From Chiloscyllium plagiosum (Eukaryota), in NCBI RefSeq assembly GCF_004010195.1, contig NC_057752.1, forward strand, positions 13,408,272-13,459,281: a DNA stretch of 51,010 nt. The letters run 5' to 3'. The translations under genes were made by a program, and so were the position numbers. Under the pieces are notes generated by a model. It was not told the DNA's origin and did not search any database. It was given only the letters and a program-made list of their open reading frames with translations. Below are positions 7,171 to 40,155 of the stretch, in pieces (the stretch's first letter is position 1; each line of letters starts with the position of its first letter).

Positions 7171-7177
7171 AAAAACA

Positions 7178-8880
7178 CTGTTCCCCATCAAACACTCCCA
7201 GGACAGGGACAGCACAGGATTAGATACAGTGTAAAGCTGCCTCTACACTATCCCCCATCAAACACTCCCAGGATAGGGACAGCATGGAGTTAGATACAGA
7301 GTAAAGCTCCCTCTACACAGATCCCCATCAAACACTCCCAGGACAGGGGCCGCACGGGGTTAGATACAGAGTAAAGCTCTCACTATACTGTACCCCATCA
7401 AACACTCCCAGGACAGGGACAGCACGGGGTTAGATGCAGAGTAAAGCTAACTCTACACTGTCCCCCATCAAACACTCCCAGGACAGGGACTGCATGGGGT
7501 TAGATGCAGAGTAAAGCTCTCTCTGCACTGTACCCCATCCAACACTCCCAGGACAGGGACAGCACGGAGTTAGATACAGTGTAAAGCTCTCTCTACACTG
7601 TCCCCCCATCAAACACTCCCAGGACAGGGACAGCACGGGGTTAGATACAGAGTAAAGCTCCCTCTACACTGTCCCCATCAAACACTCCCTGGAGAGGGAC
7701 AGCACAGGGTTAGATACAGAGTAAAGCTCTCTCTACACTGTCCCCCATCAAACACTCCCAGGACAGGGACAGCACAGGGTTAGATACAGAGTAAAGCTCT
7801 CTCGACACTGTTCCCCATCAAACACTCCCAGGACAGGGACAGCACGGGGTTAGATACAGAGTAAAGCTCCCTCTACACTGTCCCCCCATCAAACACTCCC
7901 AGGACAGGAACAGTACGGCGTTAGATACAGAATAAAGCTCTCTCGACACTGTCCCCATCAAACACTCCCAGGACAGGGACAGCACAGGGTTAGATACAGA
8001 GTAAAGCTCTCTCGACACTGTCCCCCATCAAACACTCCCAGGACAGGGACAGCACAGGATTAGATACAGAGTAAAGCTGCCTCTACACTGTCCCCCATCA
8101 AACACTCCCAGGACAGGGACAGCACAGGATTAGATACAGAGTAAAGCTGCCTCTACACTATCCCCCATCAAACTCTCCCAGGATAGGGACAGCATGGAGT
8201 TAGATACAGAGTAAAGCCATCTCTACACAGATCCCCATCAAACACTCCCAGGACAGGGGCCGCACGGGGTTAGATACAGAGTAAAGCTCTCTCTGCACTG
8301 TCCCCCATCCAACACTCCCAGGACAGGACAGCACGGGGTTAGATACAGAGTAAAGGTCTCACTATACTGTGCCCCATCAAACACTCCCAGGACAGGGACA
8401 GCATTGGGTTAGATGCAGAGTAAAGCTCTCTCTGCACTGTCCCCCATCCAACACTCCCAGGACAGGGACAGCACGGGGTTAGATACAGAGTAAAGCTCTC
8501 TCTACACTCTCCCCATCAAACACTCCCAGGATAGGGACAGCATGGAGTTAGATACAGAGTAAAGCTCCATCTACACTGACCCCATCAAACACTCCCAGGA
8601 CAGGGACAGAACGGGGTCACATACTGAGTAAAGCTGCCTCTACACTGTCCCCCCATCAAATACTCCCAGGATAGGGACAGCACGGGGTTAGTTACAGAGT
8701 AAAGCTCCCTCTACCTGTCTCCCTTCTAACACTCCCAGGATAGGGACAGCACGGGGTTAGATACAGAGTAAAGCTCTCTCTACACTGTCCCCCATCAAAC
8801 ATTTCCAGGACAGGGACAGCACGAGGTTAGTTACAGAGGAAAGTTTTCTTTGCACAGTCACCACTCAAACACTCCCAGGA
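7178..8880 (+). repeat. 70-bp tandem minisatellite, about 24 copies
   Basis: AACACTCCCA recurs at 7191, 7261, 7331, 7401, 7471, 7541 and onward (period 70). Confidence 0.97.
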
Positions 8881-9097
8881 CAACTGCTGTTTATTTTTTT
8901 TGTGGTTCTTTTGTTGCTGAGTGAACGCTGACATTCGTGTCAGCTGATGTCCTGGAATAAATTATTTATGTGGGAATGGGAAATCCTGAGGATCGAAGAT
9001 TTTTGTGGCCTTGCCTCAGCAAGAGAGAAAGTCTTGCTTTGTGACACACTCTGTTGTGGGAAATGTATACGACTTTGTGACAGAATGTGTTTTGCAG

Positions 9098-13844: not shown

Positions 13845-15125
13845 TCCTCCCACTTTCTCCAAACAAAAGGAGTAGCCATGGGCACCCGCATGGGCCCCAG
13901 CTATGCCTGCCTCTTCGTAGGGTATGTAGAACAATCCATCTTCCACAACTACACTGGCCCCACCCCCCATCTTTTCCTTCGCTACATAGATGACTCAGGA
14001 ATGAGCAGAGAGTGTTCAGCAGGAGAAGATAAAAGGTAGGGAGGAGGGACTTGGAGGAGGGGCGTTGGAAATGTGATAGGTGGAAAGAGGTCAAGGTGAG
14101 GGTGATAGGTCGGAGTAGGATGGAGGCGGAGAGGTCAAGAAGAAGACTGCAGGTCAGGAAGGTGGTGCCGGGCTGGAGGGATTCGGCTGAGACAAGTTGG
14201 GGGGAGGGGGGATGAAGAAACTGGTGAAGTCCAAGTTCATCCCCTGTGGTTGGAGGGTTCCCAGTCGGAAGATAAGATGCTCCTCCTCCGACCGTCGGGT
14301 TGTTGTGGTTTGGCGGTGGATGAGTCCAATGACCTGCATATCCTCGGTGTAGTGGGAGGGGGAGTTGAAATGCTGTGCTACAGGGTGATTGGGTTGGTTC
14401 CAACCTCCACTCCCGGCACCTTCCCTTGCAACCGCCGGAGGTGCAACACTTGCGCCCACACCTCCCCCTCACTTCTCTCCAAGGCCCCAAAGGAAACTTC
14501 CATATCCGCCACAGATTCACCTGCACCTCCACCCACATCATCTACTGCATCCGCTGCAGCCGGTGTGGCCTCCTCTATATTGGGGAGACAGGCCGCCTAC
14601 TTGCGGAGCGATTCAGAGAGCACCTCTGGGCCACCCGGACGAACCAACCCCACCAACCTGTGGCACAGCATTTCAACTCCCCCTCCCACTCCACCGAGGA
14701 TATGCAGGTCATTGGACTCATCCACCGCCAAACCACAACAACGCGACGGTCGGAGGAGGAGCGTCTTATCTTCCGACTGGGAGCCCTCCAACCACAGGGG
14801 ATGAACTTGGACTTCACCAGTTTCTTCATTCCCCCCTCCCCCCACCTTGTCTCCGCCGGGTCCCTCCCGCCCGGCACCGCCTTCCTGTCCTGCAGTCTTC
14901 TTCTTGTCCTCTCCGCCTCCATCCTACTCCGACCTATCACCCTCACCTTGACCTCTTTCCACCTATCACATTTCCAACTCCCCTCCTCCAAGTCCCTCCT
15001 CCCTACCTTTTATCTTCTCCTGCTGAACACTCTCTGCTCATTCCTGAAGAAGGGCCTGTGCCCGAAACGTCGAATCTCCTGTTCCCTGGATGCTGCCTGA
15101 CCTGCTGTGCTGTTCCAGCAATAAA
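13845..15125 (+). mobile_element. Penelope-like element (Neptune-like): RT fragment, inverted 3' segment, GIY-YIG endonuclease and pLTR
   Basis: RT QTKGVAMGTRMGPSYACLF...RYIDD (13845-13994). Cys linker CNRRRCNTC and IIYCIRCSRCGLLYIGETGR (14401-14820). 13995-14400 is the reverse complement of 14641-15047. Confidence 0.92.
15040..15075 (+). ncRNA. Minimal hammerhead ribozyme motif, intact core
   Basis: attc CTGAAGA a gggc ctgt gccc GAAA CGTC|gaat. Stem I attc/gaat, stem II gggc/gccc, ACGU palindrome in place of stem III. Confidence 0.75.
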
Positions 15126-19910: not shown

Positions 19911-19965
19911 ATGTGTGCAGAGTGTCAGAAAGCCGACATGTGGGTCTACCTAGCAGAATGCAACA
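19911..19965 (+). CDS. slc26a10: SLC26A10-like exon (MCAECQKADMWVYLAECN)
   Basis: tatctttcag acceptor and A|gtaagt donor. 55 nt, phase 0 to 1, matching the conserved 55-nt SLC26 STAS exon (VYLAxCN). Confidence 0.9.
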
Positions 19966-21200: not shown

Positions 21201-21464
21201 CCCAATGGGGGCTGCTGAACAATGCACATCTGCAGGCCTCTGATTGGCAGAGGAGGCAGGACGCCCACTCCACCACAGATTCCTTGATCTCTAGAAAGCC
21301 CCGTCATTAATGTGTCCCTCCTTGCCTGCATTAACATTTTTAAAAACACATTAGTGGGATGTGGGTGTCTACGGCTAGGGTGGCATTTATTGCCCATCAG
21401 GCACTTAAAAATCAACCACAGCTCCATAACTCTGGAGACACGTGTAGGACTGACTGAGTAAATT

Positions 21465-22530
21465 TCCCCTCCCATGTGGTTGAAGATGCCCTCCAACGCA
21501 TCTCATCCACATCCCGCACCTCCATCCTCGAACTCTACCCCTCCAACCGTAACAAGGACAGAACACCCCTGGTGCTCACCTTCCACCCTACCAACCTCCG
21601 CATAAATTGCATCATCCGCCGACATTTCCGCCACCTCCAAACAGACCCCACCACCAGGGATATATTCCCCATCCCACCCCTTTCCTCCTTCCGCAAAGAC
21701 TGTTCCCTCTGCGACTACCTGGTCAAGTCCACGCCCCCCAACAACCCACCCTCCCATCCTGGCACCCTCCCCTGCCACCGCAGGAATTGCAAAACCTGCG
21801 CCCACACCTCCTCCCTCACCTCTATCCTCCTCTATCGCCACTCCTTCACTACCCGACACCTAGAGGAAGAACGCCTGGTCTTCCGCCTCGGAATACTTCA
21901 ACCCTTTGGCATCAATGTGAACTTCACCAGTTTCCTCATTTCCGCTCCTCCCCTTACCCCAGTTCCAATCTTACAGCTCAGTACCGCCCTCATGACCTGT
22001 CAATCTTCCTTCCCACCTATCCGCTCTGCCCTCCTCTCAGACCTAATACTCTTACTCCCACATCCATCCACCTATTGCACTCTCAGCAACCTTACCCACA
22101 CACCATCCCCCTCCCATTTATTTCTCCACCCCCGAGGCTCCCAGCCTCATTCCTGATGAAGGGGAAATGCAGGGTCCTTTCACAGTGACCATCTCCTCAC
22201 ATTGCGATACAATGTTGCAGTCTTTAAAATAAGGAGGGCTTTGGAGTTCAGCAGACACAAAGAAAGTATTGTGTAAGCCTGCAGTTTAAAAGAGCAGTGG
22301 TGGCGGTTTAAAGCTTGTTAATGCCTGAGGTAAAGTATGCTTATATTACACATAGCCTCAAGCAGGCAATCTTACAGAATGTATCTGGGTGGCCATTCTC
22401 GGGGAACCCTGCTTTTTGCCCGAAACGTCGATTTTCCTGCTCCTTGGCTGCTGTCTGACTTGCTATGCTTTTCCAGCACCACTCTAATCTTGACTCTAAT
22501 CTCCAGCATCTGCAGTACCCACTTCTGCCT
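21465..22530 (+). mobile_element. Penelope-like element (RT thumb/linker, internally deleted GIY-YIG, pLTR interrupted by a 245-bp insertion)
   Basis: RTPLVLTFHP...CHRRNCKTC...EEERLVFRLG. The hammerhead is split: CTGATGAAGG at 22153-22162 and GCTTTTTGCCCGAAACGTC from 22411. Confidence 0.88.
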
Positions 22531-23276
22531 GGGTCATGATGTCAGACTTCCTTCAGTGAAGCAAGTAGGTTTTCACAATTGACAGTGGGTTGTTGGGCTA
22601 ATTTCAGGGATTTTCTTTTAAATTTGAATTCAGATTTGGTGGGATTTAAACCCACATCCCCAGAAAGTCTAGACAACTGGCCTATTGACATTACCACTAT
22701 GCCACCAAATCTTTAGTGGGTCTGTAATGAGTAAGAAACAGAATTAACAGTTTGGTTCGATGACCTTTCCTCAGAACTAGTTGAAGTTGGTGATTTGACA
22801 ATTTAAGCAAGCATGGAGGCTATAGCTTCTAAAGATGTGCCCATTGTCCTTCCACTGTAACGAATGTCATTGTTCTCTATGTTTTCTAGAAGATGTTTTG
22901 AAAATATTGACGTGTAGTGGCCTTCTTAACCACCTTCATCCAGAGCAGATCTTTGTAACGATACATGATGCTGTCGTCAATGTGGAGCGAATGAAGGTAA
23001 CAGGCTTTGTAAAGGAGTTTGCATCTTTTTTGTTCCCCGAGAATGGCCACCCAGATACATTCTGTAAGATTGCCTGCTTGAGGCTATGTGTAATATAAGC
23101 ATACTTTACCTCAGGCATTAACAAGCTTTAAACCACCACCACTGCTCTTTTAAACTGCAGGCTTACACAATACTTTCTTTGTGTCTGCTGAACTCCAAAG
23201 CCCTCCTTATTTTAAAGACTGCAACATTGTATCACAATGTGAGGAGATGGTCACTGTGAAAGGACCCTGCATTTCC
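22163..23276. repeat. 245-bp inverted repeat (arms 22163-22407 and 23032-23276) enclosing exon 22890-22996
   Basis: The arms are reverse complements. I find 2 mismatches by eye. Confidence 0.95.
22890..22996 (+). CDS. slc26a10: SLC26A10-like penultimate exon (KDVLKILTCSGLLNHLHPEQIFVTIHDAVVNVERMK)
   Basis: gttttctag acceptor and AAG|gtaaca donor, 107 nt, phase 1 to 0. SLC26 FxTIHDAV motif. Confidence 0.93.
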
Positions 23277-23299
23277 TCAGTCACAGCACAGAAACAGAT

Positions 23300-24270
23300 C
23301 CCTCGTTCTGATCAGACAACACTGACTAGACATCCCAGTCTGATCTTGTCCCATTTAGAGTCATCCAACACAGAAGCAGACCCTTCGGTCCAACTCGTCC
23401 ATGCCGACCAGATACCCTAAGTTAATCTAGTCCCATTTGCCAGCATTTGGCCCATATCCCTCTAAACCCTTCCAATTCATATACCCATCCAGAAGCCTTT
23501 TAAATGCTGTATTTGTACCAGCCTCCACCACTTCCTCTGGCAGCTCATTTCATACATGCATCACACTCTGTGTGAAAAAGTTGCCCCTTAGGTCTCTTTT
23601 GAGTCTTTCCCCTCTCACCTTAAACCCTCTACTTTTGAATTCCCCTACCCTGGAGAAAATACTTTGACTATTCACCCTATCCATGCCCCTTAAGATTTTA
23701 TAAACCTCCATAAGGTCACTCTAAGCCTCTGACATTCCAGGGAAAACAGGCCCAGCCTATTTAGCTCAAACCCTCCAACCCTGGCAACATCCTTGTAAAT
23801 CTCTTCTGAACCCTTTCAAGTATCATAGCATCTTTCCTATAGCAGGGAGACCAGAATGGAATGCAGTATTCCAAAAGTGGACGAACCAAAGTCTTGTACA
23901 GTCTGAACATGACCTCCCAACTCCTATACTCAATGCCAGCATTTGGCCCATATCCCTCTAAGCCCTTCCTATTCATATACCCACGCAGATGCCTTTTAAA
24001 TGCTGTAACTGTACCAGTCTCCACCACTTCCTCTGGCAGCTCATTCCAAACACGTACTACCCTCTGCATGAAAAAAAGTTGCCCCTTCGGTCTCTTTTAG
24101 ATTTTTCCCCACTCACCCTAAACCTATGCCCTCTAGTTCTGGACTCCCCCACCTCAGGGAAAAGACCTTGTCTATTTACCCTGTCCATGCCCCTCATGAT
24201 TTTATAAGCCTCTATAAAGTCACCCCTCAGCCCCAGCCTATTCACCCTCTCCCTATAGCTCAAACCTTTG
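23300..24270 (-). mobile_element. Two adjacent CR1/HER1 LINE 3' fragments
   Basis: LYKTLVRPLLEYC and QRVVRVWNELP, with the 3' segment present twice. Confidence 0.88.
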
Positions 24271-26048
24271 GGTGTTCACTCTGGCCAGAAAATGAAATTC
24301 CAAACATTATAATTTGATCTGAAATTAATCATTTGCCCATCATTCTTTCCTAAACACAGCATAGATAGTACATTATTTTGATGAAAGAGGAAATAATTTA
24401 TGTCTTTTGACTTAATTTTTCTCTGTTCAGTTGAGGGCATAACGTCAAGTATTTCTGTTCAGAGAGAGAGCCAGACTCATAGTTTTTAAATAAAAAATGA
24501 TACCGTGAAATATGTACCAACGGTGTAATTGGCAGAATATTAGTTGGAATGCCAATACCCACTGATGGCACAAAGCAGGCACTGTATAGGTTGACCGTGC
24601 ACAATCTAAAGTTTAAAATATGGGAACGGAAGGAAGCTATTCAAGCCTGTTCTGCCATTTAATTCAATCATGGCTAATTTGTATCTTAACTCAATCAGCC
24701 GTGGTTCCGGAATTAGGTCACCCCTTAATCTTCAAGGGGATACAAGCCTAGTCTGTGCAGTATGTCCTCACGATTTTATTTTTGAACCCCTTCTGAGGTG
24801 GGTTTGTCCTGCCTGAGGTGAAGAGCTAAGGAATAATCTCTGGGTGGGCGGGGCCTGAACCACAGTGTTGTATAACTGGTGAAAGGCAGACAGTTCTGAC
24901 ATCAAATGGTTCTCAATGAACAAACATTAGATTTAGAATTAGAGTTTATTGTCACATGTATTCAAGTACAGAAGTATAGGAACACAGTGAAAAGCGTATA
25001 ATGTCGCCACACACTGTTCCATCTTAGGTATAAAAGTACCTAGGTACACAAAATGTACATACAAAGTAATAAAAGAAACAAAATTATAAAGTTAAGCACT
25101 ACAGACTATCATAGTATCAATAGAAAATATAAAGAAATAAGCTAGTAGATAACATTAAAGCCCTTCTTAATATAAACTAGAAAAATAAAGAAATAAAGTT
25201 AAAAGTTCAACAGTCAAACAGATTGACAATGAAAGAGTTTCTCCCAGTACTGAGTAAAGCGGGTCGGTAATTCTCTGGAGTTTAGAAATTGCGAGAGGCA
25301 TTGAGACATACCAGCTTTTTGAAGGGGCTTGATAGAGCAAGGATGGTAGAGCTCTCTCTCTGAAGGGCATTAGTGAACCAGAGAGGGATTTCCCAAATTT
25401 TTAATTACCATTGGAGCAGCTTTTTAATTGAATCCAAGTTTTACTATTTATCACAGAGGGAAGGGTGGGCCTCTGGGTCACTAAGCCCAGTGACCATACC
25501 GTGAAGCCATGAGCTGTTTAGGAATCTCTCCCCCAGAGCGGGGTGGCTGCTCCACCACTGACCTATATTGAAGGCTGGGATCAGCAGAGCTTTGTTCCAT
25601 CAGGGAAATCGAGGATTGGGGGGAGTAGGTGGGAAAGTGGAGTTGAGACCCCAAGGTCAGCCAGGATTGGACTGAACAGCACAGCAGGTACATTGGGCAA
25701 AATGGTGTTGTCCTGCACCTATCTCTTATGCTCTTCTTTGCTGGTGGAGAGTGGAATAAATCAAATATGATCACTTCAGTCAGTAGAAAGTTAATGTTGA
25801 TAAAGGTGGTGAAAGTATTTTCCTCATCAACCTGCTAAGAGATACCATTATACACTGCTGGAACTTGAACCCTGGCCCCCTTGCTCAGAAACAAAAACAG
25901 AAATTGCTGGAAATGCTCAGCCTGTCTGGCAGTATCTTTGAAGAGGAATCAGAGTTAAGGCTTCGGTGACCCGTTGTACCACAATAGCCTCCAGGTTCCG
26001 TCACTAGAACTGAATGGTTTTGCTAATCCATTGATAGACTTCAGAGAA

Positions 26049-26890
26049 GGTTGTAAGTTTGCTAGCTGAACTGGCAGGATGTTTTCAGATGTTTCATCAC
26101 CATGCTAGGTAACATCATCAGTGAGCCTCCGGTGAAGTGCTGGTGTTCTGTCCTTCTTTCTGTTTATGTGTCTTGGTCTGTTGTGGTGGGTGATATCATT
26201 TCCAGTTCTTTTCTCATAGGTTGGTAAATAGGGTCCAAATCGATGTGTTTACTGATAGAGTTCTGGGTTGAATGCCAGGCCTCTAGGAATTCCCATGCTT
26301 GTCTCTGTTTAGCCTGTCCCAGTCGAAGTGGTGTCCTTCTTCACCTGTTTGTCCAATGTAGTGTTTGTTACAGTCCTTGCAGGGCGTTTTGTAAATGACA
26401 TCCGTTTTGCAAAACCCTGCAAGGACTGTAACAAAGACTACAGTGGACAAACAAGCAGAAACCTAGCCACCAGGATACATGAACACCAACTAGCCACCAA
26501 AACGACATGACCCACTCTCACTAGTATACTTACATACGGACAAAGAAGAACACCACTTTGACTGGGACAGCACCTCCATCCTGGGACAGGCTAAACAGAG
26601 ATACGCATGGGAATTCCTAGAGGCCTGACATTCAACCCAGAACTCCATCAGTAAACACATCGATTTGGACCCTATTTACCAACCTATGAGAAATAGAAAC
26701 AGAAGTGACATCATCCACCTTAAGAAACTAAAACACATAAATAGAAAGAGAGACAGAACACCAGCGCTTCACCAGAGGCTCACTGATGATGTTACCTAGT
26801 AGGGTGATGAAACGTCTGAAAACAAACCTGCCAACTCAGTGAGCAAACTTACAACCTGAACGTCAACCTGAGCTACAAATCTTCTCAAAA
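26049..26890 (+). mobile_element. Penelope/Poseidon-type PLE: GIY-YIG 3' end with an inverted upstream copy
   Basis: KPCKDCNKDYSGQTSRNLATRIHEH...FDWD...EFLEA. About 26049-26345 is the diverged reverse complement of about 26555-26856. Confidence 0.85.
26780..26819 (+). ncRNA. Minimal hammerhead motif, second PLE family
   Basis: tca CTGATGA t gttacc tagtag ggtgat GAAA CGTC|tga. Related copies at 26085-26124 (-) and 33131-33170 (-). Confidence 0.7.
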
Positions 26891-27980: not shown

Positions 27981-28019
27981 GAAGCAGCCTCACAGAAAAG
28001 CACGACAATTTGGGTATGA
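27981..28019 (+). CDS. slc26a10: SLC26A10-like terminal coding exon (EAASQKSTTIWV*)
   Basis: Strong tttctctttttttag acceptor, phase 0, TGA at 28017-28019, followed by non-repetitive UTR-like sequence. Confidence 0.8.
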   Translation, partial: EAASQKSTTIWV

Positions 28020-28370
28020 AAGAATCGGTGGACTTTCTGCTCAATGATTGCTGTACCACTTACAAAGGACAATCATAAGGGTCTGCCTGACCACAATTGC
28101 CTTTCAAGGAGACTCGAAATGAAGTGACTAGGCTCTATCCAACCTGAAATGCAGAATGAGACTTCTTTACTAATCTAAAATGTGTAGCGTTTCACTGACA
28201 AAACACAACTACAGGTTAAGCTGCATGGAATGGCTTCTTCCAGAGAGACACGTCAAAAAGCAGAAAGTCAGCTTTAACTGATATTGTTATTTGCCACTAT
28301 GGGATTTTAGTGTAGTTGGTGTGTGAATGAATCTGGTCAGAAAGAGATAAACTACAAAAGAATGATTGGG

Positions 28371-39935: not shown

Positions 39936-40155
39936 AGAAAGTGAGGTCTGCAGATGCTGGAGATCAGAGCTGGAAATGTGTTGCTGGAAAAGCGCAGCAG
40001 GTCAGACAGCATCCAGGGAACAGGAGAATCGACGTTTCGGGCATAAGCCCTTCTTCAGGAATCTTCATTCCTGAAGAAGGGCTTATGCCCGAAACGTCGA
40101 TTCTCCTGTTCCCTGGATGCTGCCTGACCTGCTGCGCTTTTCCAGCAACACATTT
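39936..40155. mobile_element. Palindromic hammerhead-bearing PLE derivative with a 16-bp TSD
   Basis: CTAGTATTGTAGAAGG at 39920-39935 and 40156-40171. 90-bp arms at 39973-40062 and 40067-40156 with a 4-nt loop. Confidence 0.9.

Follow-up and report, generated by a model that had tools for sequence, protein, structure and literature searches.

An inverted copy of intronic DNA brackets the penultimate SLC26A10 exon of Chiloscyllium plagiosum and may favour its skipping

Can a short piece of intron, copied in reverse to the other side of an exon, change the way in which that exon is spliced, and how would such a copy arise? Loop-out skipping by inverted repeats, a mechanism which is itself already established, requires long complementary arms in both introns flanking an exon, and such arms are present around one exon of the shark Chiloscyllium plagiosum. 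The locus lies in a stretch of 51 010 nucleotides (contig NC_057752.1, forward-strand positions 13 408 272 to 13 459 281), which was analysed as a whole, is called the window hereafter and provides the coordinates used below. Within the partial texts it covered, our literature search found no publication on this locus.

Judging from its translated exons, the gene concerned is SLC26A10, of whose function little is known. Indeed, these exons translate to proteins named SLC26A10 with Sulfate_transp and STAS domains: upstream exons match Sulfate_transp in Pfam and one exon of the window matches STAS, an upstream exon used as a query retrieves SLC26A10 proteins, and the C. plagiosum protein P0003 (SLC26A10 isoform X1) can be aligned with the locus one exon after another. 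The antepenultimate exon (19911–19965, forward strand, as are the two that follow) ends with ...AECN plus one base, matches both P0003 and a second record, P0127, and carries the donor used on the upstream side of the skip junction. The penultimate exon (22890–22996), 107 nt long and bounded by AG and GT, encodes residues 641–676, including FVTIHDAV, which an alignment with prestin places at the end of the STAS domain. The last exon (27981–28078) reads TIWV followed by TGA (28017–28019) in the normal frame, and a C-terminal TIWV or TVWV is found in 63 of the 121 proteins compared. The STAS assignment rests on Pfam and on the prestin alignment instead of on AlphaFold models, which are poor for both isoforms (mean pLDDT 41.3 and 49.0); a search of the PDB with the 35-residue exon query gave no match. 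Elsewhere in the gene, upstream introns hold a degenerate simple-repeat tract (1–1807) and a tandem array with a 70-bp period (7175–8882), and the last intron holds an inverted pair (26048–26857, 88% identity) around an inner hairpin (26338–26460), which resembles a small element bearing terminal inverted repeats.

The two arms lie on either side of the penultimate exon. The left arm (22163–22407, reverse strand) and the right arm (23032–23276, forward strand) are identical, once one is reverse-complemented, at 243 of 245 positions without a gap, a match far above chance (BLAST E 5e-122), and 624 nt separate them. The two mismatches oppose C at 22205 and 22304 on the left to A at 23234 and 23135 on the right, and both fall at CpG sites, of which the arm has three. 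As the preliminary description had reported, the duplication is near-perfect and 245 bp long, its 624-nt loop encloses the whole 107-nt exon with its AG and GT, and the right arm begins 35 nt past the donor. The presence of the inverted repeat in the assembly is thus confirmed. The arms had also been said to resemble no repeat elsewhere in the window, and this extends to the genome: at least two matches to the arm were returned from 3.56 Gb, these being the two arms themselves (such counts are lower bounds), and no further match occurred in 1.045 Mb of sampled genome, so that a dispersed repeat was rejected as the identity of the arm. Neither a second full copy of the loop nor an alternative contig was found in the assembly. 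The inner end of the right arm adjoins a six-base T/A run, and 2 nt from its outer end lies the tail of a repeat fragment (23277–23356) which we take to be CR1-like. Inside the loop, a tRNA-like match on the reverse strand (22632–22711; 27.7 bits against a cut-off of 29) is probably an old SINE head.

Which arm is the copy? The left arm splits a motif that runs unbroken in other copies of a common repeat, whereas the right arm interrupts nothing comparable, and this asymmetry identifies the left arm as the insert. Read in this way, the left arm is the derived copy and the right arm, which is single-copy intron DNA, its source. The host repeat is assigned to Penelope-like elements because its family carries a GIY-YIG domain, present in a sister copy at 14369–15097. 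The point of interruption lies within stem II of a hammerhead-like motif (GAAGG on one side, GCTTTT on the other), the layout of which, with a CUGA-N-GA core, stem II, GAAAC and GUC, is like that of minimal hammerheads of Penelope-like elements; ribozymes with this layout are described from such elements (PMC6155905). The motif is intact in 61 of the 81 copies found in the 1.045-Mb sample, by a motif search that itself selects for it, and five copies in this sample are collinear across the position of the left arm with 3–4 nt extra. An Rfam scan of 9000–41000 with E up to 5 gave no hammerhead match; what it did return were hairpin-like miRNA models, a weak snoRNA hit and the tRNA-like match below the cut-off.

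Other members of the family are found nearby. A Penelope-like element at 13995–15047, with 407-nt inverted arms at 95.6% identity and a GIY-YIG match, sits in an SLC26A10 intron with no exon between its arms. Palindromic, tail-to-tail Penelope fragments of 165–200 nt lie at 40008–40122 and at roughly twelve places in the sampled 1 Mb; since some of them display clear target-site duplications of 12–13 nt and relatives at 99–100% identity, the family was recently active.

Two features had escaped the preliminary description, namely the Penelope-like tail that the left arm interrupts and a 335-bp piece adjoining this arm, whose near-identical counterpart lies on another contig. All on the forward strand, the segments around the arm can be delimited as follows, with 40 candidates scored in each subfamily search. 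Segment A (21461–21827) is an older Penelope-like fragment, its best other copy being 92% identical among the matches listed. Segment B (21828–22162), the 335-bp piece, belongs to a different Penelope-like subfamily and is identical at 334 of 335 positions to a copy on contig C8 (G000:C8:51176228-51176562, reverse strand), with next-closest copies at 94% and 92% among the matches listed; it would be a templated insertion. Beyond the left arm, the inner junction carries a 3-nt filler, CCT (22408–22410), and the genome has a single occurrence of the 20-mer that spans it. Segment C (22411–22531) is an older Penelope-like tail of a third subfamily, with its best other copy at 96% among the matches listed. 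On contig C8, the sequence on either side of the copy belongs to the same subfamily as the copy itself (identities to two sister copies of 94/94/91% and 94/93/88%), whereas in the window the flanks of segment B come from subfamilies other than its own.

Both templates can therefore be named, the local intron (243/245) and the C8 copy (334/335), and the two or one differences that these pieces show contrast with the divergence of the flanks, 4% for segment C and 8% for segment A among the matches listed. At the junctions, A and B share ATCC, and B and the arm share GG, overlaps so short that they also arise by chance; at the inner junction, the 7-mer context of the filler matches the start of the arm itself in reverse, which is at most suggestive. 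From its sequence, the insert reads as a multi-template repair insertion with serial template switching at a break. A break inside the old Penelope-like repeat would have been followed by synthesis that left segment A, then used 335 nt of the C8 repeat as template and, at the GG overlap, moved to the nearby opposite strand for another 245 nt; addition of the short filler and rejoining to the Penelope tail (segment C) would have completed the process. Two separate events at the insertion site are an alternative to a single one. Insertions of this type, drawing on several templates and joined at microhomologies, are known from the human germline (PMC8421209).

Could the element itself have written the insert? 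A single young Penelope insertion is disfavoured, as tail C reaches at most 96% among the matches listed and lacks a detectable target-site duplication. Two young control tails found matches at 99–100% in the same kind of search, again among the matches listed, and segment C is thus probably older than the insert. A more elaborate version, which concerns the origin only, would have Penelope reverse transcriptase and endonuclease make the insertion: having begun on the element's own RNA, they would pivot at stem II to the local template and move on from it to RNA of the C8 copy. The usual pivot of the family is where the break is situated (of 81 motif copies, 20 are interrupted there, and 11 of these 20 have an inverted motif just upstream), which keeps this origin under consideration; moreover, the end of B is collinear with the start of C in the element, and a lizard Penelope starts reverse transcription internally and nicks its own pLTR junction (PMC11167929). 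However, the tail does not reach the 99–100% matches of the young controls, no target-site duplication was found around segment C (of eight such tails, a set that includes this one, two had one), and just one of 108 motif copies in the sample, that of the present locus, adjoins such a capture, two low-copy rows on contig C5 having been set aside in this count because their motif lies inside a 1.4-kb duplication and not at a junction. We consequently hold a Penelope-driven origin to be improbable. Copying of the arm from edited RNA is not favoured either, since both differences sit at CpG.

With repair by template switching as the preferred origin, the insert can be dated in broad terms. The left arm and segment B together show three differences in 580 bp, i.e. 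0.5% (95% interval 0.1–1.5%), and at the mutation rate of 7e-10 per generation given for the epaulette shark (PMC10587355), the upper bound on age is about 11 million generations. Allelic variation, too, would fit three differences (P about 0.11 for a pi of 0.002, a value from PMC10587355), so that the event may be very recent. For the same reason an assembly chimera has to be weighed, in which segment B and the left arm would be a repeat gap closed with reads that belong to the C8 repeat and to the other haplotype of the nearby intron. The assembly is fragmented (101 977 contigs), the window contains three N runs, the differences are at the allelic level and no alternative contig is at hand for comparison. 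Yet errors in the path through an assembly graph need long shared words, and such a chimera is made unlikely by three successive junctions with overlaps of 2–4 nt and by a filler that the genome contains at a single place; no N occurs within the unit, and the existence of a skip record fits a real stem. Overall, we regard the chimera as very unlikely.

What, then, would a genuine inverted copy do to the transcript? The arms are the only inverted pair between the two introns that flank this exon, and the predicted duplex (−477 kcal/mol) dominates the predicted fold. The occlusion check by partition-function folding gave unpaired probabilities of 0.29 versus 0.32 for the acceptor and 0.27 versus 0.25 for the donor, and thus no further occlusion of either splice site by the stem. 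As predicted splice-site pairing is left unchanged, any effect would come from looping. The stem would close about 280 nt after the donor has been transcribed and would compete with removal of the 2.9-kb upstream intron. Where it wins, position 19965 would be joined to 27981 and a 672-residue protein would be made from an mRNA escaping nonsense-mediated decay, with 32 new residues in place of the last 48 of the 688-residue form; from what we know of SLC26 proteins, this product is presumably unstable or non-transporting, and the net effect of skipping would be a partial loss of dose.

The skipped form is on public record. The preliminary description had derived a shifted frame ending at TAA 28076–28078, within the last exon, and had predicted from it a product deprived of the STAS end and of the IWV terminus; the frame and stop are correct, and the record P0127 (XP_043538012.1, isoform X2, 672 residues), a model, has exactly the predicted tail and lacks the STAS end and TIWV. 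Full-length isoform X1 is recorded as well. Alternative isoform models generally rest on RNA-seq junctions; such records depend on the depth of annotation, and their lists are incomplete. Within these limits, a skip record exists in three of the 19 species of cartilaginous fishes whose records include the C-terminus (Scyliorhinus torazame and Amblyraja, whose records lack the C-terminus, were left out). Among sharks it is confined to C. plagiosum (one of 11, and none of the other 10), and in its congener C. punctatum five isoforms reach the C-terminus, none of them with the skip. The other two species are rays, Mobula birostris and M. hypostoma, in which SLC26A10 records lack the same exon (P0013, P0014, P0143). 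The exon is therefore skippable in a distant lineage, which makes the stem less certain as the cause of skipping: the species pattern favours an effect of the stem, and yet the exon can be skipped elsewhere. Of the earlier proposal that the stem loops the exon out, the predicted formation of the stem and the existence of the skipped isoform stand, whereas its causal role is weakened by the same skip in the two Mobula species.

How unusual such a pair is also bears on this question. A sample of five blocks (1 044 734 non-N bases), searched for inverted pairs of at least 80 nt within 5 kb, contained 181 of them, five of which, including the present one, reach 200 nt and 97% identity. The arrangement is thus less singular than the preliminary description suggested, as four other pairs of at least 200 nt and at least 97% identity lie within 5 kb in this 1.045-Mb sample: the arms are single-copy in two of them, low-copy in a third and partly made of repeat in the fourth. 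Comparable pairs would number about 4 per Mb (95% interval 1–10), and some of the long inverted pairs in the sample may be assembly artefacts. Also present in the genome are a 1433-bp inverted duplication at 99.8% identity with a 399-nt spacer (G000:C5:40115683-40118947) and a near-perfect 488-bp palindrome of single-copy DNA, either real or an assembly artefact (G000:C5:40073711-40074198); two local inverted duplications of single- or low-copy DNA, 291 and 285 bp at about 97%, lie at G000:C23:20252334-20255523 and C14:30017128-30018200.

At such a density, some pairs would flank exons by chance, and the duplication could be real and nearly neutral: the exon would be leaky across cartilaginous fishes, the upstream intron would usually be removed before the stem closes, and X2 would reflect background skipping. 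The records of the two Mobula species, the full-length isoform, the splice-site accessibility unaltered by the arm and the frequency of comparable pairs all agree with this view. Against it stand the absence of a skip record in the 10 other sharks and the altered splicing of mouse Tbxt by near-perfect stems of 220–297 bp (PMC10901737). We judge near-neutrality rather unlikely, while giving it more weight than any other alternative. Somewhat better than even, in our estimation, is the reading in which a young inverted copy was written by template switching and its predicted stem raises skipping of the 107-nt SLC26A10 exon as an unselected side effect.

Back-splicing and ADAR editing are both favoured by inverted repeats on either side of an exon, and the main product of the stem could consequently be, in place of a skipped mRNA, a circular RNA of 107 nt or else a hyper-edited duplex. 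The 245-bp near-perfect duplex, with 72 and 68 adenosines in its arms and two A–C mismatches, would lend itself to either. However, 107 nt is short for a single-exon circular RNA, and SLC26 is absent from the main text of a study of circular RNAs in C. plagiosum liver (PMC7759564), which weighs little. We consider this outcome highly improbable.

The preferred reading, in which the stem raises skipping, has counterparts among known systems. In mouse Tbxt, 220 bp of intron 6 placed as reverse complement in intron 5 gave rise to alternatively spliced transcripts and to mice with shorter tails, and exon 6 was skipped in ES cells carrying a 297-bp design, which shows that non-Alu arms suffice (Xia et al. 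2024, PMC10901737). The likeness of these alleles, Tbxt-insRCS2 and insRCS, to the shark locus is close, as a non-transposon piece of the downstream intron is reversed into the upstream intron and flanks one exon; but they are laboratory alleles with measured splicing and phenotype, whereas the shark allele is natural, its exon is frameshifting and its effect is a predicted one. Inverted Alu pairs have been analysed genome-wide for loop-out skipping (PMC13019027), and in the hominoid AluY/AluSx1 pair of TBXT a lineage-specific intronic insertion likewise completes an exon-flanking inverted pair (PMC10901737; PMC13019027). The TBXT arms are dispersed SINEs identical at 228 of 297 positions; those of the shark are single-copy DNA at 99%, apparently produced by local copying. 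In MANBA, an inverted duplication made by a microhomology-mediated template switch at a repeat is associated with exon skipping attributed to a pre-mRNA hairpin (PMC6549551). That duplication spans 13.1 kb with exons, is pathogenic and leaves no wild-type transcript, in contrast to the 245 bp of pure intron in the shark, where both isoforms are on record. By analogy, the shark locus would work like the Tbxt, MANBA and inverted-Alu cases, a dependence on the arms being presumed.

The insert itself resembles the complex human germline insertions known as MMB-TI (PMC8421209) in its several templates, its inverted local copy and its short microhomologies, and differs from them in that one template lies on another contig and that the site is a Penelope tail. 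With Penelope-like elements (PMC6155905 and PMC11167929), the locus shares a host family with GIY-YIG, the CUGA-stem II-GAAAC-GUC motif and inverted tail pairs; unlike theirs, the shark arm consists of DNA foreign to the element, and the capture is probably younger than the tail.

At its widest, the interpretation would make Penelope hammerhead tails recurrent break-and-copy sites in bamboo sharks, which write inverted copies of single-copy neighbours into introns, sometimes with pieces of other chromosomes, and so act as an Alu-free factory of exon looping; the present locus would still be segregating, with a skip truncating the STAS domain of SLC26A10 in one species. We put this forward as a long shot. 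If confirmed, the narrower reading would provide the equivalent, in nature, of the reverse-complement allele engineered in Tbxt, one in which a single repair event alters splicing while exons and splice sites are left untouched, at a locus whose origin is readable and for which close relatives can serve as controls. Local inverted pairs this close to perfect number about 4 per Mb, and events of this sort could more generally feed species-specific isoforms in the slowly evolving genomes of sharks.
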